Positions 21,033 through 42,090 of a DNA stretch of 44,312 bases are shown piece by piece. Positions within the stretch are counted from its first letter, which is position 1. Each line of letters starts with the position of its first letter. The stretch comes from a virus. Location: the IMG/VR virus record IMGVR_UViG_3300031087_000005, positions 1 to 44,312 of that record; one strand, 5' to 3'. Below the pieces are notes generated by a model. The model was not told the DNA's origin and did no database searches. It was given only the letters and a program-made list of their open reading frames with translations. Position numbers and translations under genes: made by a program.

Positions 21033-21060
21033 ATATTATCACTGATAAAATACAAAGCAA
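21033..21060 (-). promoter_or_regulatory. Promoter with TTATCAsTGATAA operator driving the autotransporter-like gene
   Basis: Minus strand TTGCTT-16-TGATAATAT; palindrome at 21036-21048. Confidence 0.6.
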
Positions 21061-21063
21061 GAA

Positions 21064-21552
21064 TTATTTTTGGCCGGTTGTCAGGGAGTCGTATTGCCTT
21101 TCGCAGAGTCGCCCGGCACCTGCTGCGTCGTCAGCGTATTTTGCCAGGACTCGGTTTCTTTCGACAGATTCCCCGAGCACGTAGGCAAGCACTCTGGCGG
21201 TATCGCCGGCTGGCGTGCTGATTCCGACAGCGCCGGAATAGTCTGCGGTGATCCGTCCGATCTGGGCGAGCTGTCTGCGCAGCCTGCCGACAGAATCAGC
21301 GGCAGCGTCAGCATCAGCGCGTGCTGCAGCCATTTCGACAGCGTGGGCCCGCTCCAGCTTTGTTTTCTCAGCTTCATTCGCTAATCTCGCATCGTTATTG
21401 GCTTTGGCCTGCGCCGACTTCTGGAAAGCAATCCCTGCGTCATAGCCTTTGTTATATTGATGAACGTACAGCCCTATCAGTAACGCCGAACCAGCCGCTA
21501 TCATAACCACGGCCAGTATCAAATTCTTGTAGGCTTTAAATATCGCGCTCAT
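21064..21552 (-). CDS. Rz: i-spanin (Rz-like)
   Basis: 162 aa with an N-terminal TM (LILAVVMIAAGSALLIGLYV), then a charged coiled coil. An o-spanin is embedded in another frame. Confidence 0.75.
   Translation of the reverse strand: MSAIFKAYKNLILAVVMIAAGSALLIGLYVHQYNKGYDAGIAFQKSAQAKANNDARLANEAEKTKLERAHAVEMAAARADADAAADSVGRLRRQLAQIGRITADYSGAVGISTPAGDTARVLAYVLGESVERNRVLAKYADDAAGAGRLCERQYDSLTTGQK
21081..21314 (-). CDS. Rz1: o-spanin lipoprotein (Rz1-like), fully embedded in the Rz gene
   Basis: Alternative frame of Rz. MLTLPLILSAGC has a lipobox, followed by a proline-rich mature region. The ORF-track ORF 21081..21377 is trimmed to the internal ATG. Confidence 0.7.
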   Translation of the reverse strand: MLTLPLILSAGCADSSPRSDGSPQTIPALSESARQPAIPPECLPTCSGNLSKETESWQNTLTTQQVPGDSAKGNTTP

Positions 21553-21895
21553 GGGCTTTCTGCTGAGATCTCAGCCTCCGAAGCTCAAAGAAATATTTAC
21601 GGCGGGAACTGTCCCAGAAGTAATGGATAGCCATCCGGCGCAATGCCAGCAGCGCGAGACACACGAAAACCGTAATAGTGGTTCGCTGCGGGTAAGTGCC
21701 TTCTGCCATATGGATCAGCCCGGCTACGCACGCGAGCGAAGTCACGCTGTAGAAGAGCCGGCCGAATAGGCCGTCATTAACCCGGTCACTGAATATCGAC
21801 CAGAGACAGAAAGCCGCGATGATAGACAGGGAAATAATTGCCGCTGTCTGGTAACCGAGCGAATAAAAAACCTGGACAGAGAAGTGAGGATTCAT
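21536..21895 (-). CDS. Holin/antiholin-like membrane protein
   Basis: 119 aa, about 3 hydrophobic segments and a basic C-terminus, between the holin and Rz. Confidence 0.55.
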   Translation of the reverse strand: MNPHFSVQVFYSLGYQTAAIISLSIIAAFCLWSIFSDRVNDGLFGRLFYSVTSLACVAGLIHMAEGTYPQRTTITVFVCLALLALRRMAIHYFWDSSRRKYFFELRRLRSQQKAHERDI

Positions 21896-22254
21896 TATGG
21901 ATTGCTCCCGCCACCGAAGCGGCCTGTTATTTTATCGAATGCCTGACTTACAGCATTCTTTAACAGGTCAACAATGTCCAGTGATTTAACGGAGCGCAAC
22001 ACCGCCTGGAAGAAAGCAAAACCGAGCAATCCGAGCAAAAAACCTATCGCCGATATGAACTTGCTTCCTTCAAGGTGGAAGTACATGGCCGCGAGATCAG
22101 ACAGGTAATATGATGATACCGTTCCAAAAACCAGCAGAGATATTTTCTGTTTAAAGGTCCGGACCTCAGTACTGAGAAGCAGGGCGCATATCGCGCCGAC
22201 AAGCCCCGCTGTGATAAGATCTACCCCGTCCAGAATTTTCTGAAAGAATGACAT
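21895..22254 (-). CDS. Holin (3-TMD class)
   Basis: 119 aa with three TM segments. First gene after terminator 22316-22342 and head of the lysis cassette. Confidence 0.6.
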   Translation of the reverse strand: MSFFQKILDGVDLITAGLVGAICALLLSTEVRTFKQKISLLVFGTVSSYYLSDLAAMYFHLEGSKFISAIGFLLGLLGFAFFQAVLRSVKSLDIVDLLKNAVSQAFDKITGRFGGGSNP

Positions 22255-22315
22255 TGTGATTGCATCCCGTCACAGTCGCTAATAAGTTAGCCCCAAGGTA
22301 CCGCAGAAAGCAGAT

Positions 22316-22342
22316 AAGAAAAAGCCCCGTCGTTCGCGGGGC
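22316..22342 (-). terminator. Rho-independent terminator ending the leftward early arm
   Basis: Minus strand GCCCCG-cgaacga-CGGGGC followed by TTTTTCTT. Confidence 0.7.
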
Positions 22343-22423
22343 TGCATAAAACATGCTAAGGGGCGCTTCATCTGTCAGGACAACACTGGGTTACTTCCTT
22401 AAGAATAATCCTAATTACATCTT

Positions 22424-22808: not shown

Positions 22809-23426
22809 CTATGGTGACGGTAAAGACTTTTTCTTAACGGGCGCCGCTTTCTTTTTCTTCAGCAGTATCCCCTTCGGCGCCTGGTCGCCAAACGCATCCC
22901 AGCCTTCCGCCTGCTCACGCGCAAACATTTCCAGCCGCGGCACGTCGCCCATCAGCTCCAGGATCTTTTCCCTGACGATATCCGGCTTGCGGCTGTGCTG
23001 CGCAATCGGCTCCACGATAACCTGCGAATCCAGATACTCTGGTTCCACAATCAGCTGATGCACGCCGGCACTCTGGCGCTTAGGCTTACCCTTAACGCCC
23101 ATCAGCACCAGTTCAGCGTTTGCCCGCGTCCAGTGGCCCATGCCCCAGAACGGCGTATCAGTCGCCTTTTTGTTTGCCTTGATCCAGACGAAAGCGACCG
23201 TCTTAAAGGTGAAGCCCCACTTCTTCATGAGCTCCAGACCAGCAGGCAGCTGCGGCATCGTGACCCACATGAACAGCGCCGCGTTATCAGCGACAGGGAT
23301 ATTCATATCGGCCAGCGTGGCGTTATCCGTCGTGCGGTAGTGACGCTCAGCGCCGCCGCGGTTCAGTGCTTTGTCGCCATACTGCCAGGGTGGATCAGCG
23401 TAGATAACTTCGTATTTACTACTCAC
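22809..23426 (-). CDS. MT-A70-family DNA N6-adenine methyltransferase
   Basis: 'VIYADPPWQY' catalytic DPPW motif near the N-terminus, 205 aa. C-terminal tail is KKKKAAPVKKKSLPSP. Confidence 0.85.
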   Translation of the reverse strand: MSSKYEVIYADPPWQYGDKALNRGGAERHYRTTDNATLADMNIPVADNAALFMWVTMPQLPAGLELMKKWGFTFKTVAFVWIKANKKATDTPFWGMGHWTRANAELVLMGVKGKPKRQSAGVHQLIVEPEYLDSQVIVEPIAQHSRKPDIVREKILELMGDVPRLEMFAREQAEGWDAFGDQAPKGILLKKKKAAPVKKKSLPSP

Positions 23427-23667
23427 CGTTGTCTACCTCTTCCAGTGGCTCGTTCACCGGAACAAACAGGAACAGTTCGCCGCGACTAAACGCTTCAAGA
23501 ACATCTTGCGCCCGGCGGCAGCAGATCAAATCACTGTCTTCGAGAATAAATAGCGACTCTTCTTCCATTGCCGTTTTTACGTCGGCCAGATCAATTTGCA
23601 GAACCTGCATCAGCTCGTACTGTTTTGGTACCGTCCCCTGCTTCAAGTGATGGTTAATTTTGATCAT
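23419..23667 (-). CDS. Hypothetical protein
   Basis: 82-aa ORF, first gene after promoter 23700-23728 with the conserved AACGAGGAA leader. Confidence 0.6.
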   Translation of the reverse strand: MIKINHHLKQGTVPKQYELMQVLQIDLADVKTAMEEESLFILEDSDLICCRRAQDVLEAFSRGELFLFVPVNEPLEEVDNGE

Positions 23668-23699
23668 CAGTGTTTCCTCGTTTTGTTGAAGTGTTTTCG

Positions 23700-23728
23700 A
23701 TTATATCAGTGATAAACTAAAAACGAAA
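23700..23728 (-). promoter_or_regulatory. Extended -10 promoter with operator variant
   Basis: Minus strand TTTATCACTGATATAAT (TGnTATAAT) with a weak -35 TTTCGT; palindrome 12/13 at 23703-23715. Confidence 0.5.
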
Positions 23729-23730: not shown

Positions 23731-23754
23731 TAAAAAGCCCCGAGGTGTCGGGGC
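23731..23754 (-). terminator. Rho-independent terminator
   Basis: Minus strand GCCCCGA-cacc-TCGGGGC followed by TTTTTA, directly after stop 23762. Confidence 0.7.
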
Positions 23755-23761: not shown

Positions 23762-24025
23762 TTACGGCTGCTGCTCTTCAATAAAAGGAATAGCTTTCGT
23801 TTCCCAGCATTCGATTTCTCTTTCATGTACCGCTCGCACCTTGAGCAGCATTGATTTATCGAAGGGCTGATGCGGCATCGCCGGCCAGTAGCGGAAGAAA
23901 CCGTCGCGCAGTTTAGGATGCTGTTCGTCGGTATAGCCCAGGAAAAGAAAATCCTCTTCACCCTTCGGCAATACTGAAAAACTAAAGTACGGTTCTACCC
24001 GCTGAAGCTTATTATTTTGAGCCAT
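23762..24025 (-). CDS. Hypothetical protein
   Basis: 87-aa ORF overlapping the upstream gene by 14 nt. Confidence 0.55.
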   Translation of the reverse strand: MAQNNKLQRVEPYFSFSVLPKGEEDFLFLGYTDEQHPKLRDGFFRYWPAMPHQPFDKSMLLKVRAVHEREIECWETKAIPFIEEQQP

Positions 24026-24212
24026 CAGTTTTTACCTCATCACCAAAAACATTAGTACGGGTGCGAGAACCATCGGAGCAGACCTTATCCCCGTTAACGT
24101 CCACGCGACAGGTTACCGTTTCCCCCATCACGGCGAAAGAGTTGCCCAGCGCCAGCAGAACCAGCGCGTAAAGCATAAACAGCCGGAGTGGTACGCGTTT
24201 ATTTCTGGCCAT
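24012..24212 (-). CDS. Small secreted/membrane-anchored protein
   Basis: 66 aa with N-terminal signal-like LRLFMLYALVLLALGNSFA. Confidence 0.5.
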   Translation of the reverse strand: MARNKRVPLRLFMLYALVLLALGNSFAVMGETVTCRVDVNGDKVCSDGSRTRTNVFGDEVKTDGSK

Positions 24213-24858
24213 CGTTATTGCCCTCTTTACCCTGATCAGCGAAATACGCGTTGCGATAGTGCTGCAGGGATTTGCTCAGTTCGGCGTTTTCCTGCCAGTA
24301 TTTATCTTTCAGCTGCAGCGCGGTTTGCAGTGAACGATGGTAATCGTCGCGCTCATTCTCCAGCTGTGTACACTTAGCTTCCCAGTCCTTGATCTGGTCC
24401 TGCAGGTCTGCGGCTACTGCCTGCCAGTTCATCGTTGCCGGTTTAATTCCTGTGGCCGCGAGCGACTCATACTGTTTATCGTACGACGGGAACAGATCAG
24501 GACGGTAGCCTAACGACAGATGGGTGATACGGCAGCCAAATGACGGGTTATCCGGGCCCGAGCTGCGAAGTGACTCATACTGTTTATCGTACGACGGGAA
24601 CAGGTCTGGATTAAACGGCTTAACGTCGTTTACGCAAACGTGAGCGGTACCGGAGGGCGGGCAACCTTCGTCCCGGCAAAGCTGAGACGCTTCCCGCGCT
24701 TTGTGCAGCTCCTGCAGAAGCTCCCAGTCGGCCCAGGTCATAGCGGGTAAGTATGCCGCCTGAGTTTCAGCGCTCGGTCGGCCTTCCCAGAGACTGCGCG
24801 TCTCTAAGGTAGCTTTAGCATGTGCCAGGATCGGCAGACGCTTACGTTTATCAGTCAT
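24199..24858 (-). CDS. Hypothetical coiled-coil protein with an internal duplicated motif
   Basis: 219 aa, first gene after promoter 24901-24929. 'DLFPSYDKQYESL' occurs twice. Confidence 0.6.
   Translation of the reverse strand: MTDKRKRLPILAHAKATLETRSLWEGRPSAETQAAYLPAMTWADWELLQELHKAREASQLCRDEGCPPSGTAHVCVNDVKPFNPDLFPSYDKQYESLRSSGPDNPSFGCRITHLSLGYRPDLFPSYDKQYESLAATGIKPATMNWQAVAADLQDQIKDWEAKCTQLENERDDYHRSLQTALQLKDKYWQENAELSKSLQHYRNAYFADQGKEGNNDGQK
24464..24603. repeat. 32-bp perfect direct repeat (24464-24495 and 24572-24603), 108 nt apart and in frame
   Basis: gactcatactgtttatcgtacgacgggaacag is read twice. Confidence 0.9.
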
Positions 24859-24900
24859 CGGTTTTTCCTCGTTTCATTAAATGGGTAACTCACAATCTGG

Positions 24901-24929
24901 ATATTATCACTGATAAATTATTCTGTCAA
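24901..24929 (-). promoter_or_regulatory. Strong sigma70 promoter with TTATCAsTGATAA operator
   Basis: Minus strand TTGACA-17-TAATAT with TGn; palindrome at 24904-24916. Confidence 0.7.
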
Positions 24930-25394
24930 ATACTCCCAGCGATATCCGGCGTGGGTCTTGCGCTCACCGCGACAGCAGCGGCTGATATCCCCGGCGATGA
25001 ATCCCGCTTCGACGCAGGCTTTCAGGCCGACGAAATTTAACTCCATGCCGGTTTTAACGTGGACAGCCCGGACAGGGATTGCCCGCGGGTCTTTGCGTAC
25101 GCGCTTCTTCGCCCGGTTCTCTGGTCGCTGACGCAGTTTGCTCAGCTGCACATAGGTAGAGCGTTCAGTGCGCCCCAGTGCTTCTGCTATCTTCTCCAGT
25201 GCCACTCCGTCATACCAGAGATCAAGCACCTTTTTATTGTCGGCATCTGGCCAGCGTTTGTTATAAAAGGCCAGGCTTACCCCGAGCTTAGCGGCGTGCA
25301 TTCTTACCGTGTCAACACTGACGCACAGCTCATCGGCGATCTGGTTAACCGGCATCGTACCGGCCATGCGGGCGACCTTCTGCCATGTTTTCAT
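24918..25394 (-). CDS. Multi-HTH DNA-binding protein (candidate transcription regulator)
   Basis: 158 aa with three HTH-like segments: 'VNQIADELCVSVDTVRMHAAKLG', 'LEKIAEALGRTERSTYVQLSKL', and a NUMOD1-like C-terminus 'ISRCCRGERKTHAGYRWEY'. Confidence 0.6.
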   Translation of the reverse strand: MKTWQKVARMAGTMPVNQIADELCVSVDTVRMHAAKLGVSLAFYNKRWPDADNKKVLDLWYDGVALEKIAEALGRTERSTYVQLSKLRQRPENRAKKRVRKDPRAIPVRAVHVKTGMELNFVGLKACVEAGFIAGDISRCCRGERKTHAGYRWEYLTE

Positions 25395-25404: not shown

Positions 25405-25602
25405 TTATCCTCGCGGGATAGTCTGCCAGTCGTGGCCGCGCTTTATCCACAACCTGAAAAGTTTATGTGCCAGCGCGGCACGGCGTTCGGTGTCAAAGGT
25501 ACCGAGATAAAGCAGCACGCCCGCTGCCGGCGTTAACCGGGCTCTGAACCGTTTACCGTTGGCGGTCCGGTTCGACCCTCGCTGGCTCGGGCGTCTGCTC
25601 AT
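25405..25602 (-). CDS. Stand-alone AP2-like DNA-binding domain protein
   Basis: 65 aa. 'GKRFRARL...YLGTFDTERRAALAHKLF' fits the AP2 core pattern (RA...LG.F.T.E.A). Confidence 0.5.
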   Translation of the reverse strand: MSRRPSQRGSNRTANGKRFRARLTPAAGVLLYLGTFDTERRAALAHKLFRLWIKRGHDWQTIPRG

Positions 25603-26045
25603 TTCTTGCTCGCCTCCTCAATATTGCGCAGGATGGCGCGTAAAGCCAGACGCAAGCCCTGCTCAGCATCGCCGCAATCCTCCAGGCAATCAACCAGCGC
25701 GTTAACGCCAGCAGTCAAGGTTGTTTCATCCTCAACCAGTTCAGCCAGGTCAGCGGCGGGGCGGGTGAATAAAAATACTCCATCAGCTAACACACCATCC
25801 AGATAGTCTATAAATAATGAAGCCCCGCACGGTATGGAACTGTTCACAATCCCTACAGCCTTTTTGTTGCACTGTGCGTTAAGCTTCGCCTCTGCTGCTT
25901 CTGCGCGGCGTTTCCACTCATCGCGCTGAGAAGTCGTAGTAACGAGCAATTTAGCTGTTTCTACTACCTCCTGGTTGGTGTAGCCCGACGAACCGTATTT
26001 TTCGGCGTACTCAGCTATCTGCGCCGGATCTCTTAACTTTTCCAT
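25599..26045 (-). CDS. Hypothetical protein
   Basis: 148-aa ORF with an ATGA-type overlap to the next gene. Confidence 0.6.
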   Translation of the reverse strand: MEKLRDPAQIAEYAEKYGSSGYTNQEVVETAKLLVTTTSQRDEWKRRAEAAEAKLNAQCNKKAVGIVNSSIPCGASLFIDYLDGVLADGVFLFTRPAADLAELVEDETTLTAGVNALVDCLEDCGDAEQGLRLALRAILRNIEEASKK

Positions 26046-26135: not shown

Positions 26136-26171
26136 GCCCTTTCCTCGTTTCAGTATTAGTCAACGTTTTGG

Positions 26172-26200
26172 ATGTTATCACTGATAATATCAGAAGTCAG
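26172..26200 (-). promoter_or_regulatory. Promoter with TTATCAsTGATAA operator
   Basis: Minus strand CTGACT-17-TAACAT with TGn; palindrome at 26175-26187. Confidence 0.5.
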
Positions 26201-26366
26201 CATATATTTTCGGCGGTGGCATCAGCTGCCCTTTCTTCGCCCAGTGACTGAACAGTCGGGCCGCCAGCTCCGCACGTTCCCGCGTACGATGCCCGCCCAG
26301 ATCAAATTTCTCGCGCATGAAGTACCCGCACGCGCGCCACTTACCATCAGGTGCCAGCCATGCCAT
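26190..26366 (-). CDS. Stand-alone AP2-like DNA-binding domain protein (paralogue of 25405..25602)
   Basis: ORF-track start 26384 is GTG; ATG is at 26366. 'DGKWRAC...LGGHRTRERAELAARLFSHWAKKG' aligns with the other AP2-like ORF. Confidence 0.5.
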   Translation of the reverse strand: MAWLAPDGKWRACGYFMREKFDLGGHRTRERAELAARLFSHWAKKGQLMPPPKIYADF

Positions 26367-26368
26367 GA

Positions 26369-26713
26369 TCAGCGACCCTCGCACCAGATAGCCTGCTCAC
26401 CTTCAGCAGGGATTACCAGGACGGCGTTACCGCGGCGCTCTGCTACGACCAGATAGATCCCCGTCTCGAACTCATACGCCACCGCCGCATACTCTGAGCC
26501 ATCCGGGCGCACCCCGGCAGCCGGCGAACTGTTGAGCAGCGTATATACCTCCCTGTCATTGATCGTCAGCGAGTTCTGGCCAAAGCGGAGCTGATACGCC
26601 CCGCAGTCATAACGCCAGTCATCAGACGCCCGGGCTTCGACCGCCCAGAGAGTTACCAGCGCGGCCGCTATCCATAGCAGCGCGATCAGTACAGCTTTTA
26701 AAGGGTTACTCAT
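26369..26713 (-). CDS. Exported/periplasmic hypothetical protein
   Basis: 114 aa with signal-like LKAVLIALLWIAAALVTLWAVEARA. Confidence 0.6.
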   Translation of the reverse strand: MSNPLKAVLIALLWIAAALVTLWAVEARASDDWRYDCGAYQLRFGQNSLTINDREVYTLLNSSPAAGVRPDGSEYAAVAYEFETGIYLVVAERRGNAVLVIPAEGEQAIWCEGR

Positions 26714-28206: not shown

Positions 28207-28234
28207 AGTTTATCACTGATAAAATAATAGTCAA
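28207..28234 (-). promoter_or_regulatory. Promoter with TTATCAsTGATAA operator
   Basis: Minus strand TTGACT-16-TAAACT with TGn; palindrome at 28210-28222. Confidence 0.6.
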
Positions 28235-28267
28235 TACAGTAATAGCTGGACCTGATCGAAAAATCTT

Positions 28268-28642
28268 CAATGGGTTTTGTAAATGCGGTTTTTATCACTG
28301 ATAGAAATCTCGATTTTCATGGATTTTCAAAAAGGGCTCGGGAAACTGACCGAACACCTGAAAATCAGCAAAAATTCACAATGGCTTCAATGGGTAGCTA
28401 CAATGGGTTTTAAAAATTTATTGCAGGGATTTCAATACGTTGCGAGCGATTTTAATGGGATCAAGGGCTTTTTGACTAGTTAGACTATAAATACCCCTCT
28501 TTTTAATATCCTCATAGGATCGTTTTGCCCCTTTTCGTTTAATCTCTAAAAACCCATTAAACCCATTAAAACCCATTAATTGATATTGAAAACTAAGGAA
28601 AATTTTTTCAATGGGTTTAGCAAAGCCATTGAAAACCCATTG
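28268..28642. repeat. Iteron array / putative origin of replication
   Basis: Eleven 9-mers matching yAATGGsTT. Forward copies at 28268, 28379, 28388, 28401, 28453, 28609. Reverse copies at 28551, 28560, 28570 (tandem, 9-10 bp spacing), 28623, 28634. They flank an AT-rich stretch at about 28480-28550. Confidence 0.7.
28292..28304. promoter_or_regulatory. Additional operator-like copy (TTATCACTGATAg, 12/13) without convincing promoter hexamers
   Basis: Read directly; lies 70 bp upstream of the 28210 copy, at the edge of the iteron region. Confidence 0.4.
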
Positions 28643-28645
28643 AAA

Positions 28646-28683: not shown

Positions 28684-31200
28684 TCAGTCGTCGAGGTCCG
28701 ACCCTCCGGGTATCGGCCACTTGTAAAGGTTGGGGTTCGTGCCTCCGTAGTCTTTGACGCTGACGCGCCCTGCGCTCACCAGGCGCTTAAGTGCGTAGCC
28801 AACCAGCTGGGACTGATGAGGCGGATAGCCGATCATCCTGGCGATCTCGCTGGCACGTTTCCATGCGTACCCTTCTTCGGCGTGCTCTGCCATAAATTCC
28901 TTCAGCAGCATATCGACCGAGTCTTCGCTGGTGAATGCCTGGTTAATATGCTGCTGACGATCACGGAGCTCGCCTTCAACGTGCCACGTTTCCCCGGCAT
29001 CGAACCATGAAGCGATCTCCAGCCAGAACTGAATCAGAAGATCGGGGTGCGGCTGGGTCAGCCTGCCGTTGTCGTAGTGCCAGCCCAGCAGTTCGTTCAT
29101 CCGGTCAATCTGCACGGTGCCGACGGTCAGCGGTGCGAAGCGCAGGTTACCTGACTGATCGACCAGCAGCGGCCGTCCGTTGTCATTGGCGGTACCGATG
29201 AAGACCGACTGACGAGGCTTGCGGGTGTTCGTCCGGGCGTAGGCGGCGCGGTAGGCATCTACCTTGCGCGAGATAAACGACTTCACCTTATCGACGTCAG
29301 ATTTATGCAGGTTTCCCATTTCAGCCCATTCGATAATATGCGAGCCGGTGGCGCGGATCAGGGAATCCTTATCCTTCAGGTCAATCTGTTCGTCATGGAA
29401 CTGTCGCGGCACCAGTCCGGCGATGCGCCCGATTGCGTTCGACTTGAACTTAGACTGACCGGCCACCAGGATCGGCACCAGCTTCGCCTCGAAATGTTCT
29501 TCCAGGCGAACAGCAGCATATGCAGACAGGAGCCACTTGCGCATGATAGCCCGGCCATAGTCCCTGTCGGTGAAGTCGAAGCAGTCGATCACGTTATCAA
29601 CACGGTGAACGCCGTCCCATTCGTGGCCATGCAGCGCCGCGGCAACGGGGTGATAGCTGCGCTCCAGCGCGACCTTAGTGATATGCCGTTCGATCGTACC
29701 GGTCGCGATGCGGTGGAACGTGCCGAAGTCCGTCAGGTCGGAAACAATAACCTCATAGTTGCTGACGATGCGGCCGTTGCTGTACCACATTTCGAGCTCG
29801 CCGGTCATCAGGTTAATGCACAGCTGGGCCTTTCGCTTATCGAGGATCCAGCGCAGGTTCTCCGAGCAGTTGAACGCGCTGACAATATCGCCCGACTTAT
29901 GATCGTATTCAGCCTGGAGCTCCGCGCCGTACGGTTCGAACTTTCCCGCGACGGCAGGCAGTTTCTTTTTAACCTCCGCCACCTGTTCACCTGCGCCCGG
30001 CAGCGGTTTCTTTTTCTTAACAGGGGTAGACGGCATATCCAGATGAATGGTTTCTTCGGCCTCGTCACCGTCATTCAGATCGTCGTCAGTCAGGGAATCA
30101 ATGAAGCTCTGGCGTTCGGCGGCGCGTTCCTTCTTCACCATATCGAAAATGGTTTTGTAGGGGTTCTGCCACTTGCCGTACTCAGCGCGAATTGAATCTT
30201 CCCACTCTGCTTCATCAATGCCGGCCTGCGTGGCCCACTCTGCGCCGTGCTGCATGGACCAGGCGACCAGCAGGTCTTCTGCCCATTGTTCGTGCTCGGT
30301 GCCAATGAAGTCGCCCAGCGCGCCGCAGATGCGACCCCAGCCGTAGGTTCCGTCAGAGCGGGCGTTGTTGTTGGCGCAGTCCGCCAGGTGATCGTTCAGG
30401 TATTCGGCAATCAGTTCTTTGTTGTCGTATGAGGCTCGGTTGAACTCCGCCATGCGTTTCGCATGGTCTTTGGTGTGGTGCCCGGTGCGCACGCTGTGAT
30501 TCATTGCCTCGGTCAGTTCAGGCAGGTCACGGACTTTTACCGCGTCGCCCTCGAAACACCAGACCGGATTATCCCCGGGCGGCAGGAACGCGAAGTGCGC
30601 CGGATCGTTCATTGACCGGTCAAAGGTAATCTGCCCGCTGTCCGGCAGGGTCCAGATATTACGCTGCAGGCCGGCGCCCAGCTCGGTCATGATCCACTGT
30701 TCGAAACGAAGGCAGGCTTCTTTGACAGGGAACAGCAGCTGGTCACAGAGCACGACTAAGCGCGCACGGCGTGACATAGGGTTATCACTGGCGGTGTAGT
30801 AATAGAAGTGGCTGATGCCTTTAAGGCGTTTGGTCAGAGCCTTCAGTGCCGAAGGAGTTGCTCCGTCGATATCGAACGGCAGCAGACGTGACGGCATTAC
30901 CGCAGGCGCGCGGCGCACAATGCCCTCGACCATATCGCCGTTTTTATCGCGGTACTCGATCGGCTTAAGCCCGGCCCATACAACGTACGGCTGATGGGTT
31001 TTTGCGATCTCCAGCGGCAGCGCGCGGTCAAGCGGCATCCGGCGCTTCTCAATAAAGGTGGCCAGTGCGGACAGGGAATCGAACGAGCGGACGTCTGCTT
31101 CGCTGTGGGTGCCCTGGGGGTAGCCCGGACCGTGAGGATCTTTCCACCAGGTAGCCCCGAACGTAACGGTTATCCTACTGGTTTTTTTCTTCTTGATCAT
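28684..31200 (-). CDS. DNA primase-polymerase / VirE(D5)-type helicase fusion
   Basis: About 838 aa. N-part has the acidic 'LPFDIDG' motif. C-part resembles VirE/D5-like NTPases (KLVPILVAGQSKFKSNAIGRIAG). ATG 31200 overlaps the XRE gene by 26 nt. Confidence 0.75.
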   Translation of the reverse strand: MIKKKKTSRITVTFGATWWKDPHGPGYPQGTHSEADVRSFDSLSALATFIEKRRMPLDRALPLEIAKTHQPYVVWAGLKPIEYRDKNGDMVEGIVRRAPAVMPSRLLPFDIDGATPSALKALTKRLKGISHFYYYTASDNPMSRRARLVVLCDQLLFPVKEACLRFEQWIMTELGAGLQRNIWTLPDSGQITFDRSMNDPAHFAFLPPGDNPVWCFEGDAVKVRDLPELTEAMNHSVRTGHHTKDHAKRMAEFNRASYDNKELIAEYLNDHLADCANNNARSDGTYGWGRICGALGDFIGTEHEQWAEDLLVAWSMQHGAEWATQAGIDEAEWEDSIRAEYGKWQNPYKTIFDMVKKERAAERQSFIDSLTDDDLNDGDEAEETIHLDMPSTPVKKKKPLPGAGEQVAEVKKKLPAVAGKFEPYGAELQAEYDHKSGDIVSAFNCSENLRWILDKRKAQLCINLMTGELEMWYSNGRIVSNYEVIVSDLTDFGTFHRIATGTIERHITKVALERSYHPVAAALHGHEWDGVHRVDNVIDCFDFTDRDYGRAIMRKWLLSAYAAVRLEEHFEAKLVPILVAGQSKFKSNAIGRIAGLVPRQFHDEQIDLKDKDSLIRATGSHIIEWAEMGNLHKSDVDKVKSFISRKVDAYRAAYARTNTRKPRQSVFIGTANDNGRPLLVDQSGNLRFAPLTVGTVQIDRMNELLGWHYDNGRLTQPHPDLLIQFWLEIASWFDAGETWHVEGELRDRQQHINQAFTSEDSVDMLLKEFMAEHAEEGYAWKRASEIARMIGYPPHQSQLVGYALKRLVSAGRVSVKDYGGTNPNLYKWPIPGGSDLDD

Positions 31201-31399
31201 CGTATTCACCAAACAGAAGCCAGAAGGGATTGCACTGAAGCGCGGTAGAGAGCTGCAGAATGTTGCGCGGGCGCTGCGTGATACCGGCCTCTATCCAGGC
31301 GATAGAGACCTGACTCAGCCCGCACGCGGTCGCCAGCTGCTGCTGAGTCAGGTTAAGCTTTTTGCGCTGCTGCCTGCAGCGCTCTGCCAGAGTAGACAT
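31175..31399 (-). CDS. XRE/Cro-type HTH transcriptional regulator
   Basis: 74 aa. 'LNLTQQQLATACGLSQVSIAWIEAG' is a classic HTH_3 pattern. First gene of the leftward arm. Confidence 0.8.
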   Translation of the reverse strand: MSTLAERCRQQRKKLNLTQQQLATACGLSQVSIAWIEAGITQRPRNILQLSTALQCNPFWLLFGEYDDQEEKNQ

Positions 31400-31459: not shown

Positions 31460-31466
31460 GTCTCAC

Positions 31467-34631: not shown

Positions 34632-34649
34632 GCCGGGCAGTAATATCAG

Positions 34650-34685: not shown

Positions 34686-35723
34686 ATGAATTTCTATAAC
34701 GAGTGGGACAAAGGCGCGGCTGCCTGGCTGCGGGAATTAATCAAAGCGGGGCACATCCCGCCAGGAATAGTAGATGAACGATCCATCACCGAAATTAAAA
34801 AAGAAGATCTTGCCGGGTTCACCCAGTGTCATTTCTTCTGCGGGATTGGAGGCTGGCCACTCGCACTCAGGCTCGCCGGTATCCCTGAAGAAACGCCACT
34901 GTGGACCGGAAGCCCTCCCTGCCAGCCGTTCAGCGTTGCAGGTAAACAACTCGGGCAACTTGACGAGCGACACCTCGCGCCAGCCTTTATGCGGCTCGTT
35001 GACCAGTGCCGCCCTGCAATCCTGTTTGGCGAGCAGGTTGCGGCAGCAATTGGAAAACACTGGCTCGATGATTTATTCACTGAGCTGGAAAGACAAGGCT
35101 ACGCCTGCGGGGCGGCCGTACTGCCAGCGGCAAGCGTCGGTGCCCCGCACAAACGCGATCGACTCTTCTTTGGTGCGCACAAACTGGCAAACCCCCACAG
35201 TCACATGCATTCACGAACGGTCGAAAGAAGCCACGCAGAGGCGGAAAGAATTCAGGGCATCAATAGGACGAGATTCTCTGGCTCCGGGAAACCTAGCGGA
35301 ACAGGCCAGTCTTTATCTGGCAACCTGGCCGACACCAACGACGCGGGATCACAAGGACGGGGCGGAGTGCCTGAATGTTCCTACCAACAGCCTGCTGGGG
35401 CGGGTGGTGTGGCAGGCAAACTGGCCGACGCCGTGCGCGAACAATTCGACCGGGGCGGGGCATCAGGGCCGGGACGGCGGGCACAACCTACAGACGGCGG
35501 TATCTCTGACGCAGCCAATACGCATAACGGCTTCTGGTCAGATGCTGACTGGCTCGGGTGCCGGGATGGAAAGTTCCGGCCAGTTAGACCCGGCACATTC
35601 CCGCTGGCTAATGGGATTCCCGCCAGAGTGGGACGGCTGCGCGGTTATGGCAATGCCATCGTCCCGCAAGTCGCAGCAGAATTTATCAAAGCCTTTACAG
35701 GAGCAATCAACGATGTTAACTAA
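34686..35723 (+). CDS. DNA (cytosine-5) methyltransferase (frame-0 reading; see findings for the frame anomaly)
   Basis: Motifs I FFCGIGG, IV SPPCQPFS, VI LFGEQV, VIII GAPHKRDRLFF, and X YGNAIVPQVA at the C-terminus. Confidence 0.75.
   Translation: MNFYNEWDKGAAAWLRELIKAGHIPPGIVDERSITEIKKEDLAGFTQCHFFCGIGGWPLALRLAGIPEETPLWTGSPPCQPFSVAGKQLGQLDERHLAPAFMRLVDQCRPAILFGEQVAAAIGKHWLDDLFTELERQGYACGAAVLPAASVGAPHKRDRLFFGAHKLANPHSHMHSRTVERSHAEAERIQGINRTRFSGSGKPSGTGQSLSGNLADTNDAGSQGRGGVPECSYQQPAGAGGVAGKLADAVREQFDRGGASGPGRRAQPTDGGISDAANTHNGFWSDADWLGCRDGKFRPVRPGTFPLANGIPARVGRLRGYGNAIVPQVAAEFIKAFTGAINDVN
34774..35712 (+). other. Stop-free +1 frame (313 codons) overlapping the methyltransferase gene and contiguous with the nuclease ORF
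   Basis: ORF-track ORF 34774..37107. This part encodes WQTP/WPTP/WPTP repeats and SRWLMGFPPEWD. Confidence 0.4.
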
Positions 35724-37107
35724 AAAGAAAAAAGCCGCACCAGCAGTACTGGTAAAGAAAAAAGCGCCGCCTGCTGCAGTCGCCGCGCCAGTCAAGAAAA
35801 AGAAAATAGCGCCCGCAGAGATTATCCCTGTCGTGAACGTGGCGCCAGGCCACGCGCTGCTGTCTCCGTCATACAGCAAAACCTGGCTGGCATGTGCTGC
35901 GGCACTTGCGGCAGGGCTCGATGAGCCGAACGTCAGCGGTGCGGCGGCGATAGAGGGGACGCTGTGTCATCAGGTGCTGGAGAATGTGATCAACCGGCTT
36001 ATTGATCCGCAATGCAAGCTCGACGTTAAGCTACCGGCCTGGGCGCAGATAATGAAGCCAGGTGAAGATAACCAGCGAACACCTAAGCAGATGGGGAGTG
36101 ATCGCTATCAGGGACAATCCCCCGTTGACTATATCGGCACCTGCCCGCTTCCGGATCATCCGAAGATGCAGTTCACTGCTGACCAGGCGAAACTGATCAC
36201 GCCGTTCGTTAACTACATTCGTGGCCTGATGGATGCCGGCTATACCGTGTTCCCGGAAATGCGGGTCAACCTGTCAGAAGTCCTGGGCGCTGCGAACACC
36301 TTCGGGACCGCCGACCTTATCGCATTCAAAGACGATCATCTGATTGTCGGCGATCTGAAGATGGGCCGCCATGCTGTATCACCGGGCACGCTGGACGACC
36401 TGAATACCCAGATGGGACTTTATGGAGCGGGCGTGCTGCACCGGTACCGTAAAACGAAAAACTTCCAGCAGGTGACGCTGCTGATCGCCCAGCCCCGCGC
36501 GGGTGGCCTCAAGTTCCTGGAGGATATCCCTGCTACTGCGCTGGCGGACTTTGGCAACTACGCCCGCGATCGCGCTGCTGACGCGCTGGCCTGCGTCAGC
36601 AAAGGTAAGAAGAAACTCGTCGCCGGGGATTTCAATCCGACGCCGGGCGGGTGCCAGTGGTGCCGGTTCCGCGATAAGTGCAGCGCGAAGCTGAAAGCGT
36701 CAACAGGCATTGATGAGCCGTCAGGCAATGAGATCAGCGATGAAGAGCTGTTTGCGGCTTATGAGAAGTTGCCACTGCTGGAATCGCAGATAGCTTCGAC
36801 CCGCGCTGAAGTGCTTAAGCGGCTGCTGGCAGGGCGTAAGATTGGCGGCCTTAAAGTGGTACAGGGAAAACCCGGTAACCGTAAGTGGGGAGATGAGCGC
36901 GCCGCAGAAGCCTATCTTCTGGGCAAACTGTTCGCCAAAGCCTATGAGAAAAAAGTGCTCAGCCCGACCGCCGCCGCTAAACTCCTGCCGGATGATCCCG
37001 AGCTGGAGAAGCTGATTGTGCGGCCTGAAGGTAAGCCGTCTATTGCCCAGGGCGAAGACCGCCGCGAACAGTACGGAAAAATTGAAGATAGTGATTTAGA
37101 TGATTGA
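35713..37107 (+). CDS. PD-(D/E)XK Cas4-like nuclease (DUF2800-type)
   Basis: ATG 35713 overlaps the methylase stop by 11 nt. 'GHALLSPSYSKTWLAC', 'GDLKMGRH' and C-terminal CQWCRFRDKC form a Cas4-like 4-Cys pattern. N-terminal K/A/P-rich tail. Confidence 0.8.
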   Translation: MLTKKKKAAPAVLVKKKAPPAAVAAPVKKKKIAPAEIIPVVNVAPGHALLSPSYSKTWLACAAALAAGLDEPNVSGAAAIEGTLCHQVLENVINRLIDPQCKLDVKLPAWAQIMKPGEDNQRTPKQMGSDRYQGQSPVDYIGTCPLPDHPKMQFTADQAKLITPFVNYIRGLMDAGYTVFPEMRVNLSEVLGAANTFGTADLIAFKDDHLIVGDLKMGRHAVSPGTLDDLNTQMGLYGAGVLHRYRKTKNFQQVTLLIAQPRAGGLKFLEDIPATALADFGNYARDRAADALACVSKGKKKLVAGDFNPTPGGCQWCRFRDKCSAKLKASTGIDEPSGNEISDEELFAAYEKLPLLESQIASTRAEVLKRLLAGRKIGGLKVVQGKPGNRKWGDERAAEAYLLGKLFAKAYEKKVLSPTAAAKLLPDDPELEKLIVRPEGKPSIAQGEDRREQYGKIEDSDLDD

Positions 37108-37132
37108 CAGGCGATTTTATCGCTGATAATAT
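37104..37132 (+). promoter_or_regulatory. Consensus-like promoter with operator (TTATCgCTGATAA)
   Basis: TTGACA-17-TAATAT with TGn; the -35 overlaps the nuclease stop codon; palindrome at 37117-37129. Confidence 0.75.
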
Positions 37133-37198
37133 TCGCACTAAGTCGCCGGGGACTATATCCCGGAACCATGAAACCCTAACTCCCAGAGACCTTAAATC

Positions 37199-37840
37199 AT
37201 GAAAGTAAATATTAAAAACGTCCGTGCACTCTACCCCTTCCTGTTCTCTAAAGACCAGCCGAAGAAAGCCGATCAGGATCCGAAGTATCGCGTCACTCTG
37301 ACGATGGAAGAAGACCATCCAGGCGTTGAACAGATCCGTGAAGCAGCGCTGGAAGTTCTGACCGCTAAAGTCGGCGCGGATGCCGCTGAACGCTGGATGA
37401 AGAATAACTTCGGTGTCGATAAGAAAACCGGCGTTCTTCACTGGGGCGACAAGCGCGACGAGCCGTCCGAAGACTTCGACGCTACCCGTTACTTCACCGC
37501 TAAAAGCGACAGCCAGCCGGTTATACAGACCTCACTGGGTGCGAAGCAGAAGCGAGAAGGAATGGTTCGCGATGAAGACGGCGACGATATCGAGCTTGAT
37601 CGCGATGAGCACGGCAAACAGATTTATGCTGGCTGCTTCGTCAATGCCTCTATAAATGTCGTAGCCTGGAAGAACGACAACGGTACCGGCGTCTCCACCT
37701 ACCTGCTGGGCATTAAGTTCCGTAAAGACGGTGACGAGCAGCAGCTGGGCGAAACCGTTGGCGACGACGATCTCGACGATGACGACGAAGATGTCGCACC
37801 GCCGAAGAAAGTTGCCGCACCGGCCAAAAAGAAAAAGTAA
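37199..37840 (+). CDS. ssDNA-binding-type protein (DUF2815-like)
   Basis: 213 aa. 'MKVNIKNVRALYPFLFSKDQP...KYRVTL' is the typical N-terminus. Acidic stretch DDDLDDDDED, then PPKKVAAPAKKKK. Confidence 0.7.
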   Translation: MKVNIKNVRALYPFLFSKDQPKKADQDPKYRVTLTMEEDHPGVEQIREAALEVLTAKVGADAAERWMKNNFGVDKKTGVLHWGDKRDEPSEDFDATRYFTAKSDSQPVIQTSLGAKQKREGMVRDEDGDDIELDRDEHGKQIYAGCFVNASINVVAWKNDNGTGVSTYLLGIKFRKDGDEQQLGETVGDDDLDDDDEDVAPPKKVAAPAKKKK

Positions 37841-37847: not shown

Positions 37848-37870
37848 GGCCGGGGGTTCCCGGCCTTTTT
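37848..37870 (+). terminator. Rho-independent terminator
   Basis: GGCCGGG-ggtt-CCCGGCC followed by TTTTT. Confidence 0.75.
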
Positions 37871-40114: not shown

Positions 40115-40417
40115 ATGGCCTATCAACGTGAAGTGGGGCGCGGTGGCGTCGAAGACTATTTTGTTAAAGCGGCACGCAAGGCTAAGTGCCTCGTCCGTAA
40201 ATTGCTATGGGGGTGCCGTAACGGCGCGCCTGACCGGCTCCTGATATTCCCTGACGGACGACTGTTCTTTGTTGAACTGAAGTCGCCAGGTAAAGAGGCG
40301 GAACCTCACCAGTTGCGGGAACATGCCCGGCTTATGGGGTACGGCCAGCGCGTCTATACGATCGACACGAAAGCGAAAATTAACGCCTTCTTTGAGGAAT
40401 TCACTGATGCCGGATAA
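40115..40417 (+). CDS. VRR-NUC domain nuclease
   Basis: 100 aa; 'GAPDRLLIFPDGRLFFVELKSPG...Q' has the PD-ExK core. Confidence 0.75.
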   Translation: MAYQREVGRGGVEDYFVKAARKAKCLVRKLLWGCRNGAPDRLLIFPDGRLFFVELKSPGKEAEPHQLREHARLMGYGQRVYTIDTKAKINAFFEEFTDAG

Positions 40418-41810
40418 ATGGAAGCCCAGGCCACACCAGGTGCCTATGATGCAGTTCCTGCTGAACCATCCGCGCGGCAACCTGTTCGCTGGCATGGGGG
40501 CAGGGAAGAGCTCTGCCATACTGCAGCTGATAGACTGGCTGAGAATGGCTAACAGGCTTCGCGGGCGCGCGCTTATCATAACGCCGCTGCGCGTGGCAGA
40601 AATGACCTTTCCCGAAGAAGTCGAAAAATTCAGTTTTCCTCGCGTAAAAATGTCGCTGGTACTGGGAAAACCTGCGGAGCGCCTGGCAGCGCTTTATGAC
40701 AGCAAAGCAAACACCTTTGTGGTCAACTGGGATAACCTGCAATGGCTAGAAGAGGCTCTGGGCGACAGTTTCGCCACCTTCTTCGATATGGTCGTCTGTG
40801 ATGAGTCAACAAAGCTCGCCGGGTATCGGACTCGCAATGGCAGCAAACGTGCTGCCGTACTGGCCCGCATCGCGCACAAAGTCCCTTACTGGTACAACAT
40901 GACAGGAACTCCGGGGGCAGGCGGCCTGCTGTCGCTCTGGGGCCAGCACTGGTTCATTGATGGAGGCAAGGCGCTGGGCACATCCTTCAAGTCGTATCAG
41001 AGAAGGTTTTTTCTTCAGGAATACCGGGAAGGCAATGATCGTCCGGTATGGGTTCCGAGTCGCCTGGCAGACAAGGAGATACGTGAAAGGATGGGAAAGC
41101 TATCAGTCTATATCGACCCTGCGGAATGGTTCGGTACCGATACGCCGGTTATCAATGACGTAGAAATCCGGCTGCCGGCTAAAGCCCAGAAAATTTACGA
41201 TCAGGTGGAAGCCGAACTGTTTGCCGAACTGGAGTCCGGGGATATCGAGGCGCATAACGCCGCGGGGCGTTCGAATAAGTGTCTTCAGATTGCGGGCGGC
41301 GCGTGCTACCTGACCGACGCTAACGGCGATCCTATGGATGCATGGGAGGAAATCCATACCGCGAAGCTGGACGCGTTGGAACAGATAATCGAAGAGGCCA
41401 ACGGTGAAGCGGTACTGGTCGCCTATAACTTCAAGCACGAAAAAGAACGCATCCTGAAACGTTTCAAACAGGCCCGGGAACTGGATAAACAGGCCGTCAG
41501 CGACTGGAACAAGGGAAAAGTATCCCTGATGGTTGCACATCCCGCCAGCGCGGGCCACGGGCTTAATCTGCAGGATGGCGGCCGGACGATGGTCTACTAC
41601 TCAACTGGATGGAATCTGGAGCACACGTTGCAGATCCTGGAGCGTATCGGGCCTGTCCGTCAGATGCAGGCCGGGCACCCGCGCACCGTGTTCGTTCATC
41701 GCATTATCGCCCGCGGCACGGTAGACAGCGTGGTCATGCGCCGCGCCGACGGCAAGCGCGGGGTAATGCAATCCCTGCTTGATTACTGGCGACATAAAAA
41801 AGACGCTTGA
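40407..41810 (+). CDS. SNF2-family helicase/ATPase
   Basis: ATG 40407 (MPDKWKPRPHQ). 'GMGAGKS' Walker A, 'VCDESTKL' DExx box, helicase-C 'HPASAGHGLNLQDGG'. Confidence 0.85.
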   Translation: MPDKWKPRPHQVPMMQFLLNHPRGNLFAGMGAGKSSAILQLIDWLRMANRLRGRALIITPLRVAEMTFPEEVEKFSFPRVKMSLVLGKPAERLAALYDSKANTFVVNWDNLQWLEEALGDSFATFFDMVVCDESTKLAGYRTRNGSKRAAVLARIAHKVPYWYNMTGTPGAGGLLSLWGQHWFIDGGKALGTSFKSYQRRFFLQEYREGNDRPVWVPSRLADKEIRERMGKLSVYIDPAEWFGTDTPVINDVEIRLPAKAQKIYDQVEAELFAELESGDIEAHNAAGRSNKCLQIAGGACYLTDANGDPMDAWEEIHTAKLDALEQIIEEANGEAVLVAYNFKHEKERILKRFKQARELDKQAVSDWNKGKVSLMVAHPASAGHGLNLQDGGRTMVYYSTGWNLEHTLQILERIGPVRQMQAGHPRTVFVHRIIARGTVDSVVMRRADGKRGVMQSLLDYWRHKKDA

Positions 41811-41835
41811 TTTTCGATTTTATCACTGATAATAT
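41807..41835 (+). promoter_or_regulatory. Promoter with perfect TTATCACTGATAA operator
   Basis: TTGATT-17-TAATAT with TGn; the -35 overlaps the SNF2 stop codon; palindrome at 41820-41832. Confidence 0.7.
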
Positions 41836-41846
41836 ATTTCTATCCC

Positions 41847-41870
41847 GCCCGGTTCGCCGGGCTTTTTCTT
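41847..41870 (+). terminator. Terminator-like hairpin located just downstream of the 41807 promoter
   Basis: GCCCGG-ttcg-CCGGGC followed by TTTTTCTT; begins about 5 nt after the predicted start site. Confidence 0.6.
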
Positions 41871-41881
41871 AAGGAAGTAAA

Positions 41882-42073
41882 ATGCGTGAACTGCTGGAGA
41901 ATATCGACCGCTGCCTGACTAAGACTGAAAAGCAGTTGGTAAAGCTGGAACCGCTGGTAGAAGAATTTGAGCAGGGATTACGTCAGCTTTCCGGGCCCGA
42001 GCAGTTGCAATATCGTGAACTGGCAAAGTCAATCGAAAACCGCACGGCGCATATCCGAAAACTTTTATCCTGA
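41882..42073 (+). CDS. Hypothetical coiled-coil protein
   Basis: 63-aa ORF with AAGGAAG SD. Confidence 0.55.
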   Translation: MRELLENIDRCLTKTEKQLVKLEPLVEEFEQGLRQLSGPEQLQYRELAKSIENRTAHIRKLLS

Positions 42074-42090
42074 GTTTATCTGTGATAATA
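42062..42090 (+). promoter_or_regulatory. Weaker promoter with operator variant TTATCtGTGATAA
   Basis: TTTTAT-17-TAATAT with TGn; palindrome 12/13 at 42075-42087. Confidence 0.45.

Follow-up and report, generated by a model that had tools for sequence, protein, structure and literature searches.

Genome organization and the ten palindromes

The window analysed here is the whole 44,312-nucleotide stretch of the IMG/VR virus record IMGVR_UViG_3300031087_000005, the complete genome, ~44 kb long and circularly permuted, of a phage with a contractile tail, and our subject is a 13-bp palindrome, TTATCAsTGATAA, that recurs in its predicted early promoters. Structural and packaging genes (sheath, tape measure, baseplate, major head protein, portal and large terminase) are present together with an endolysin gene. 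The late genes lie on the minus strand from 19.5 kb down to 0.6 kb and continue through the window ends. There are two divergent early arms, the left on the minus strand from 31.4 to 19.8 kb and the right on the plus strand from 31.45 to 42.8 kb. Among their products are a VapE-type primase-helicase, a UvrD-like helicase, a DUF2800 nuclease, an SSB-like protein (whose orthologues in related phages match Enc34_ssDNA-bd), PolA, VRR-NUC and an SNF2 helicase; they also encode a 434-Cro-like protein, MT-A70, holins with a spanin, and a YadA-anchor adhesin.

A search of the window with at most one mismatch returned exactly 10 sites, against 0.02 expected in shuffles. These are the ten copies listed by eye in an earlier, sequence-only reading of this DNA, with no further site; the last of them, placed there at 42075-42087, is at 42076-42088, and the copies at 34096 and 37117, given there as exact, are both 12/13 (TTATCGCTGATAA). 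The tally is thus five exact copies (21036, 24904, 26175, 28210 and 41820) and five with one mismatch. The pattern TTATC-N3-GATAA fits better, with 8 exact and 2 one-mismatch copies, all intergenic; three extra one-mismatch matches to it fall in coding DNA (8907, 24085 and 32380), where ~0.8 are expected. This is the conserved core, extended weakly to the 19-bp A-N2-TTATC-N3-GATAA-N2-T, and the central base of the dyad is G or C regardless of orientation. In a de novo search for any 5-N(0-6)-5 palindrome, this word occurred 8 times and every other word at most 3 times. Dispersed over 21 kb, all ten copies lie wholly within the 6.6% of the window that falls outside called genes (chance P ~1e-12), so that both the count and the positional bias proposed for checking held, every one of the ten being intergenic.

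Weaker matches are also in excess, with 30 sites at up to 3 mismatches (6 expected) and 50 copies of the half-site TGATAA outside the ten palindromes (16 expected, a ~3-fold excess). A stoperator-like scatter of half-operators was considered and rejected, as 23 of the 47 coding TGATAA copies are in the frame xxT-GAT-AAx; both excesses are due mostly to coding (codon/dipeptide) bias.

Read toward the downstream genes, nine of the sites take the sigma-70 form TTGACA-N7-TTATCAsTGATAA-TAT, in which the palindrome spans -22 to -10 with its centre at -16. The -10 element is made of the last three palindrome bases plus TAT, CAT, ACT or AAT, and the TG of TGATAA is the TG of an extended -10, in agreement with the earlier observation that the right half-site of nine of the ten copies runs on into TGATAATAT, TGATATAAT, TGATAACAT or TGATAAACT. 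Defined as TAnnnT with TG one base upstream, the extended -10 is present at nine of the ten sites (TGaTAATAT, TGaTATAAT, TGaTAACAT, TGaTAAACT) and absent at 28292. The -35 matches TTGACA at 4 or more of 6 positions at seven sites and is weak at 23703 and 42076, two promoters that depend on their full TGn extended -10. The perfect TTGACA-17-TAATAT promoters described before were found again at 24929-24901 (minus strand) and 37104-37132 (plus strand), the spacing of 16-17 bp was borne out (TTGACT-16 at 28234 and 34084), and the nine promoter-embedded copies do point at downstream genes. The register of the dyad relative to the -35, the TG and the -10 is constant across the nine promoters, and from the predicted starts it is 22-60 nt to start codons preceded by strong Shine-Dalgarno sequences. 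Intrinsic terminators bracket several of the units (23737-54, 22323-43, 28652-69, 34648-70, 37848-65 and 41847-62), which makes the arms chains of promoter-genes-terminator modules.

On the minus strand, P21036 (21033..21060; -35 TTGCTT at 21055-21060, 16-bp spacer, TTATCAGTGATAA at 21036-21048, -10 TAATAT at 21033-21038) drives the adhesin gene 19792-20940, whose product matches the YadA_anchor domain. Having both a palindrome promoter and a terminator hairpin (~19626-19665) to itself, this gene has classic moron architecture, and the palindrome previously assigned to an adhesin moron is the one in P21036. P23703 (23700..23728) carries TTATCACTGATAT at 23703-23715, with one mismatch, and a perfect extended -10, TGaTATAAT (23700-23705), behind a weak -35; it comes immediately after the terminator 23737-23754 and serves 23419-23667 together with the MT-A70 methylase unit. 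P24904 (24901..24929; TTGACA, 17-bp spacer, TAATAT, palindrome 24904-24916) drives 24199-24858, and its -35 overlaps the final codons of gene 24918-25394. P26175 (26172..26200; -35 CTGACT, palindrome 26175-26187, -10 TAACAT) comes right after the AP2-like gene 26190-26384 and serves a unit comprising a 28-residue peptide, 25599-26045, the AP2-like gene 25405-25602 and 24918-25394. The first promoter past the origin region is P28210 (28207..28234; TTGACT, 16-bp spacer, TAAACT, palindrome 28210-28222), driving a small-gene block from 28162 to 26190. The stand-alone tenth copy, CTATCAGTGATAA at 28292..28304, has no -10 or -35 in either direction and sits 82 bp from P28210, inside the iteron-rich origin.

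On the plus strand, P34096 (34084..34111; TTGACT, 16-bp spacer, TAATAT, TTATCGCTGATAA at 34096-34108) drives the acidic protein gene 34155-34631, followed by the terminator 34648-34670. P37117 (37104..37132; TTGACA, 17-bp spacer, TAATAT, TTATCGCTGATAA at 37117-37129) has a -35 that overlaps the stop codon of 34774-37107 and drives the SSB-like gene 37199-37840, followed by the terminator 37848-37865. P41820 (41807..41835; TTGATT, 17-bp spacer, TAATAT, palindrome 41820-41832) and P42076 (42063..42091; weak -35 TTTTAT, TTATCTGTGATAA at 42076-42088, TGaTAATAT) complete the set, the latter driving the zinc-finger protein gene 42120-42380 and 42373-42777.

The dyad is absent from three promoters, namely the two divergent immediate-early promoters at 31.4 kb and a candidate lysis/late promoter at 19581-19609 on the minus strand (TTGATA-17-CATAAT), which precedes the endolysin and late genes. 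The last has the left half-site TTATCA alone, directly after its -35, and a GC-rich spacer, and falls outside the palindrome set. The statement that every early/middle unit carries the palindrome was therefore too broad, and the polymerase does not need the dyad, since promoters without it exist in the same genome (31.4 kb, 19.6 kb).

Several features near these promoters deserve mention. A leader/ribosome-binding-site block, (T)GAAACGAGGAAA, stands before many early genes and the endolysin gene, with 8 matches at up to one mismatch against 0.7 expected (among them 23673-23683, 24864-24874, 26140-26150, 31406-31416, 34138-34148 and ~19551-19575), and occurs in the relatives as well. The 60-nt leader of the SSB-like gene (37139-37198) contains a hairpin, CCGGG-N8-CCCGG, kept in the related contigs L119, L125, L123 and L317, which could be a site for translational autoregulation. 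A strong intrinsic terminator at 41847-41862 (6 G-C pairs and a T run; region 41842-41868) starts 5 nt past the predicted start of P41820, whose transcripts would thus reach it almost immediately. Upstream of P37117, a cytosine-methylase open reading frame (34686-35723) and a 777-residue one (34774-37107), the latter with a methylase/'Mte8-like' N-terminus and a DUF2800 nuclease C-terminus, overlap out of frame by ~950 nt; both frames are open in L125 too, and the two overlapping features are annotated in Kagunavirus records.

Conservation in related phages and 10.5-kb elements

No close cultured relative of the window phage was found. By capsid the nearest are Yersinia phage P744 and Erwinia phage RF1 (~52-54%), and the primase relatives bear Pantoea names. 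We take it to be an uncultured Pantoea-type phage, from a phage lineage of plant-associated Pantoea. Erwinia phage RF1 has the structural module in common with the window and a different early module, with no copy of the palindrome. No prophage copy of the window phage occurs in 185,579 species genomes, and the proteins scanned included no product of an integrase, partition or CI-like gene; the phage is apparently lytic.

We recovered five related phage contigs or contig groups: L119/L121 (primase 91% identical to that of the window), L125/L142/L126 (76%), L123 (67%), L270 (67%) and L317, which keeps a 158-residue gene otherwise confined to the window and L119. The palindrome is present at every orthologous intergenic position that could be inspected in these relatives, so the conservation that the sequence-only reading had proposed to look for is there, and it is embedded in flanks that have diverged. 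Five of them follow the origin, the AP2-like or a 114-residue gene, the NUMOD-like gene, the spanin and SNF2, and four precede the MT-A70 unit and the genes for the acidic, SSB-like and zinc-finger proteins. Even the centre variants are promoter-specific and inherited, with GCT at the two replication cassettes and TGT or TCT elsewhere: the GCT centre of P34096 is kept in L119, L125, L123 and L317, and the TGT centre of P42076, at the zinc-finger unit, in L121, L123 and L142. The promoter-less copy at 28292 recurs as the same copy in L119 and at the equivalent place in L317, and some relatives have several copies near the origin (L270 at 3502, 3540 and 3601; L123 at 12845 and 12896). In L125 the same adhesin gene, with a palindrome promoter, lies directly after the origin, not at the location it has in the window.

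Using the core as the search pattern, we gathered 35 non-redundant sites from four related phages. TTATC at -22 to -18 is invariant across the 35. Outside the search pattern, numbered from the dyad centre, A(-9) is found in 33/35, T(+9) in 34/35, T(+1) in 34/35 and C(+10) in 26/35, and beyond -10 to +10 the information content is at background. The third base of the -10 mirrors the left half, being A in 32/35 sites (TAAnAT) where the consensus has T. The earlier proposal that the symmetry exceeds what RNA polymerase needs is supported by the invariance of TTATC and by the promoter-less copy at 28292. A left half that is fixed and that polymerase does not need, A as the third -10 base, a centre free of orientation and conserved promoter-less copies together point to a separate, symmetric reader.

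The same dyad was found outside the phages. Two contigs, L127 (1-10616) and L128 (1-10549), are 100% identical and permuted, and their terminal overlaps close a circle of 10,494 bp; they come from two assemblies, one of them named Pantoea vagans, and L269 and a contig of P0010 are relatives. These 10.5-kb elements encode an integrase-like protein and a RelB/YafQ toxin-antitoxin pair. They also encode a VapE primase 39-49% identical to the phage primase (49% in L127/L128), a full-length tape-measure homologue 44% identical to that of the phage, and homologues of phage gene 11398-11799 and of the secreted 66-residue peptide 24012-24212. In L127/L128 three copies of the dyad stand in the phage-like promoter register, two preceding small ribbon-helix-helix (RHH)-like genes (Pfam RHH_5, E=6.6e-4; a weak Arc match for the L269 orthologue) and one overlapping the primase start codon. 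No DNA-binding protein common to the elements and the phage was found, and the element has no match in PLSDB. Judging from its gene content, the 10.5-kb element may belong to this phage lineage as a satellite or a plasmid.

Wider scans returned little else. In the literature the exact 13-mer turned up only in an unrelated plant paper, and generic motif strings matched only tetO papers. Viral contigs scanned with a 16-mer and with a -35 plus dyad pattern gave mostly chance single matches, but they also revealed two IMG/VR relatives. A scan for paired dyads returned 45 unrelated contigs, such as L311, with origin iterons inside a replication gene, and L276, and no unrelated Pantoea phage. A scan of a genome collection gave no Pantoea match among the 120 matches listed and is uninformative on hosts. 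At 5977-6042 of the unrelated low-GC viral contig L276, two GTTATCAGAGATAAC dyads flank a TTGACA-17-TATAAT promoter beside a CI-like XRE repressor gene; this GTTATC-N3-GATAAC pair makes such dyads plausible as operators of helix-turn-helix (HTH) dimers.

Possible readers of the palindrome

From the statistics of the sites, the geometry of the promoters and the conservation in the lineage, we infer that the dyad is probably the operator of one two-fold symmetric dimeric repressor, acting at the nine promoters and the origin copy. Host RNA polymerase, unmodified, would read the free promoters. A bound protein would cover the contacts of sigma with the TG and the -10 and so occlude polymerase, and may also block read-through as a roadblock. 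That the dyad covers the TG and -10 of promoters close to the consensus, with spacers of 16-17 bp, argues for repression by occlusion rather than activation; activators of the MerR type work with spacers of 19-20 bp, and those of class I/II bind upstream. Nine early/middle units, including the replication-protein cassettes and the adhesin moron, would be turned down together, and the two immediate-early promoters, with their 434-Cro homologue and other dyads, and the candidate lysis/late promoter at 19581-19609 would escape. The origin copy or copies might couple this control to replication or provide cooperative binding at P28210.

Two protein/site pairs in the same genomes serve as internal controls. 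At 31.4 kb, two 14-bp dyads of 434 type, ATAAG-N4-CTTAT (31433-31448, GATAAGTAATCTTATC, and 31478-31493, TATAAGCTATCTTATA), overlap the spacer and -10 of both divergent immediate-early promoters. They adjoin the gene for a 74-residue 434-Cro homologue (31175..31399, minus strand; full-length match to PDB 1zug, E=4e-16; Pfam HTH_3), which bears out the claim of a different operator at this place. Clustered beside cro and tracking the recognition helix, the dyads at 31433-31493 behave as a 434/lambda operator set of 14-17-bp dyads does, and the palindrome does not. L123 has the same type of dyads and a similar recognition helix, and L125 and L270 have other helices and other dyads. No cI partner is present, and the divergently transcribed first gene of the region differs between relatives. 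The 434-Cro homologue is thus likely the reader of the 31.4-kb dyads and not of the palindrome; as a palindrome reader it was rejected, having dyads of its own that co-vary with its helix among the relatives while the palindrome stays constant.

The other pair concerns the region ~28250-28650, which is non-coding, has 38% GC, follows the primase gene and contains 7 exact and 1 near copies of AATGGGTTT in both orientations; it is a probable iteron-type replication origin. The iterons are AATGGGTTT in the window, TTACTGGGT in L119, L125 and L123, and different again in L270 and L127. The primases of the window and L119 are 93-100% identical up to their last ~110 residues, where identity falls to 60-75%, and it looks as if the primase C-terminus and the iterons were swapped together, reader with site. 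The primase was rejected as palindrome reader on the same ground, since the origin has its own iterons, exchanged along with the primase C-terminus. The constancy of the palindrome stands out against these two drifted pairs, which argues against the Cro-like protein and the primase as its readers; a regulon with so many sites that change is difficult would be consistent with it, and so would a conserved reader of host origin.

Among the proteins scanned there was no TetR-like or CI-like long repressor, as the sequence-only reading had noted from the open reading frames, and no RHH gene was detected in the phage by tblastn or phmmer. That reading had named as candidate binders the multi-HTH protein 24918..25394, two AP2-like proteins and a host factor. 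The first (158 residues, minus strand) has two weak HTH matches and a C-terminal NUMOD-like domain. Its N-terminal HTHs were rejected, being absent from L123, L125 and L270, relatives that keep the palindrome; the NUMOD-like domain, found in all relatives as a 61-77-residue gene just upstream of a palindrome promoter, is still a candidate. For the stand-alone, 65-residue AP2-like protein (25405..25602, minus strand; profile comparison with PDB AP2 domains, E=6.6e-5), which has a paralogue at 26190-26384 and orthologues in L125, L123 and L270, the AP2 identity stands at the profile level, and the protein is still a candidate, although its presumed DNA-contacting strand varies between phages while the palindrome is constant. 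A further candidate is the 86-residue zinc-ribbon protein (42120..42380, plus strand; CxxC-N22-CxxC and a basic tail), with PHROG matches to the endonuclease VII N-terminus and to Lar-like proteins, which is conserved in L123 and L142, where the region is available. We favour as binder a small phage-encoded protein made from a palindrome promoter, with the NUMOD-like protein appearing the best candidate, followed by the zinc-finger and then the AP2-like proteins. A conserved host protein is nearly as likely; this candidate has gained weight here.

Several points count against a dedicated repressor. The evidence is sequence analysis throughout, and the conservation of the core is partly ascertainment, as the core was the search pattern, although the arguments from orthologous positions and from flanking positions are unaffected. 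The two-sided conserved positions (+/-4, +/-5, +/-9 and the TG at +/-1,2) are the key positions of an extended -10 on either strand, so polymerase alone could give part of the symmetry. No phage DNA-binding candidate is convincing, and neither conservation nor co-occurrence sets one of them apart: the presumed contact strand of the AP2-like proteins varies, the HTHs of the 158-residue protein are missing in relatives, and the helix conserved in the NUMOD-like domain is found throughout that family. The dyad is kept in the 10.5-kb elements, which have no DNA-binding protein in common with the phage. Finally, if P21036 also reads into the adhesin/late region, the shut-off must spare the late genes through the candidate 19.6-kb promoter.

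The rival that we take most seriously, though as clearly the less probable reading, is that the reader is a conserved Pantoea/Erwinia host transcription factor to which phage and satellite promoters have adapted; in one variant the phage would gate its delayed-early units through it, with relief by an immediate-early product or a physiological signal, for example. The dyad is invariant across phages with 67-91% primase identity and in the 10.5-kb elements, where that identity is 46-49% and which share no DNA-binding protein with the phage, and the phage-encoded pairs have drifted (Cro helices and dyads between window/L123 and L125/L270; iterons even between window and L119). However, a regulon of ~10 sites is itself strongly constrained, so that invariance needs no host protein, and the phage would pay a price for nine promoters with a site for a host repressor unless it made use of that site. 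Compared by eye with the consensus sequences, Fur, DnaA, IHF, CRP, FNR, LexA and sigma-28 do not fit; the Fur box (GATAATGATAATCATTATC, or TGATAATnATTATCA as 7-1-7) is not matched, the half-sites being everted (ATTATCA-s-TGATAAT) and the hexamer register broken. No enterobacterial factor is known to have a TTATC-N3-GATAA-type site. It is quite unlikely that no extra protein is involved and that polymerase reads the dyad as two back-to-back extended -10 elements (TGnTAAnAT on each strand), possibly with divergent transcription, or as an optimal spacer. The mirrored invariant positions are indeed -12T, -11A, -7T and TG on both strands, the reverse hexamer is usually TAAAAT, and extended -10 promoters need no -35. 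Yet +/-3, which polymerase does not read, and +/-6, where the consensus T is preferred, are fixed. The reverse TG is missing in 13/35 sites (present in 22/35), there is no reverse -35 signal at +14 to +19, the copy at 28292 is conserved although it has neither of the -10-like hexamers, and other promoters of the same genome do without the dyad. The predicted divergent starts would also be ~32 bp apart, unlike the overlapping -10 arrangement of symmetric bidirectional promoters that Warman et al. reportedly described in 2021.

Two further rivals start from the elements and from recombination. The dyad could primarily be the operator of the Arc/CopG-like RHH repressors of the elements, or of a phage counterpart, and serve satellite silencing or eavesdropping, which we consider rather improbable. 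In L127/L128 two of the three dyad copies lie in promoters directly upstream of the small RHH-like genes, an assignment that comes from the RHH_5 and Arc matches given above, in an arrangement like the Pant-arc of P22, and the elements hold homologues of the phage primase, tape measure, head-region protein and secreted peptide. However, with no RHH gene detectable in it, the phage still needs a reader of its own for its ten copies, the binding of the RHH proteins to the dyad is putative, and the satellite status comes from gene content. As for a duplicated promoter cassette spread by recombination in the manner of T4 PeSL, of which the copies would be relics with an unselected left half, the leader/ribosome-binding-site block (T)GAAACGAGGAAA does accompany several copies, and the gene order around them differs between relatives, the adhesin moron and its promoter lying elsewhere in L125. 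But the sequence between the -35, the dyad and the ribosome-binding site is unrelated among copies of one genome, information content is at background just outside -10 to +10, with none of the extended identity of PeSL-like cassettes, and the dyad persists at orthologous sites with diverged flanks, which makes this origin highly improbable.

A repressor dedicated to the dyad remains our preferred reading, so that the sequence-only proposal of an operator within promoters fares best, while its list of binders is tenable in part. The presence of the dyad in elements without a common DNA-binding protein is the strongest hint for a host reader or for helper-satellite cross-talk. That the dyad is a signal common to a lytic Pantoea myovirus lineage and its 10.5-kb satellites, with control in either direction, seems unlikely on balance. 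Under such cross-talk, Arc-like RHH repressors of the satellite would bind the dyad and silence all nine helper promoters, a repressor-based immunity that the helper would be unable to escape by mutation, because the same sites run its own programme; conversely, the regulator of the helper might time satellite gene expression. A dyad in a small circular element with borrowed phage genes makes such cross-regulation directly testable. For this uncultured lineage three promoter classes are now mapped, namely predicted Cro-controlled immediate-early, dyad-controlled early/middle and dyad-free lysis/late promoters. The 19-bp dyad is a short, exact bait for the missing regulator, and the nine natural promoters, which differ only in operator centre and -35/-10 quality, offer a graded repressible set for Pantoea or Erwinia.

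Comparison with known systems

The closest sequence likeness is to the tet operator. In tetO2, TCCC[TATC]AGT[GATA]GAGA, eight positions were randomised as the most important for TetR recognition (PMC11686294), and the phage core T[TATC]AsT[GATA]A holds all eight of these specificity positions, TATC-N3-GATA, which is present at all ten sites. The site at 28292 agrees with 12/13 positions of the 13-bp tetO2 core. The phage operator also lies in the spacer/-10 of TTGACA promoters, the placement chosen for the tet operator in the PLtetO-1 design. The outer pair at +/-6, however, is T/A in the phage and not C/G (except in one half of 28292), the other 19-bp flanks are unrelated, and the Pfam and PHROG scans of early phage proteins gave no TetR_N match. 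The layout differs as well, with ten dispersed single operators in the phage and tandem O1/O2 between divergent genes in tet. With different outer bases and no TetR, this is not a tet system; having the tetO specificity core, the promoters may nevertheless respond to TetR, which would be useful if true.

The OR/OL regions of lambda and 434 likewise have dyad operators inside sigma-70 promoters, read by small HTH dimers, but 434-type dyads are 14 bp long (5-4-5), clustered and co-varying with Cro, whereas the palindrome is 13 bp (5-3-5), one per promoter, dispersed and invariant. KorA of RK2/IncP has a palindromic operator that overlaps the -10/spacer of several strong promoters, as the phage palindrome does. 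In P22 the gene for Arc, a small RHH repressor, lies directly behind Pant, the promoter that Arc represses, and the RHH-like genes of the 10.5-kb elements lie directly behind dyad promoters in the same way. These are plasmid or immI-region systems with known proteins and other sequences, and no KorA-like or Arc-like gene was found in the phage.

The closest kind of system is the dispersed regulon. The C1 operators of P1, the gp71 stoperators of mycobacteriophage L5 and the conserved inverted repeats (CIRs) of phiC31 are short sites present ~10-30 times, intergenic, tied to promoters or to the direction of transcription and read by one protein. The palindrome shows the same many-copy intergenic distribution, with 10 copies in 21 kb, and does so again in the five relatives. 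P1, L5 and phiC31 are temperate phages with an identified repressor, and the sites of P1 and L5 are asymmetric; here, in contrast, the phage is apparently lytic, the site is a true dyad welded to an extended -10, and the scanned proteins include no repressor, integrase or partition protein. A small repressor in a lytic phage has a precedent in Gp36 of mycobacteriophage D29, which damps early and late genes downstream of its sites (PMC12266134), although Gp36 resembles MerR and its sites are GC-rich direct repeats rather than a palindrome set into a promoter. The finding is most likely a familiar kind of phage control in a new lineage, and the pattern behind it is real, strongly non-random and lineage-wide.

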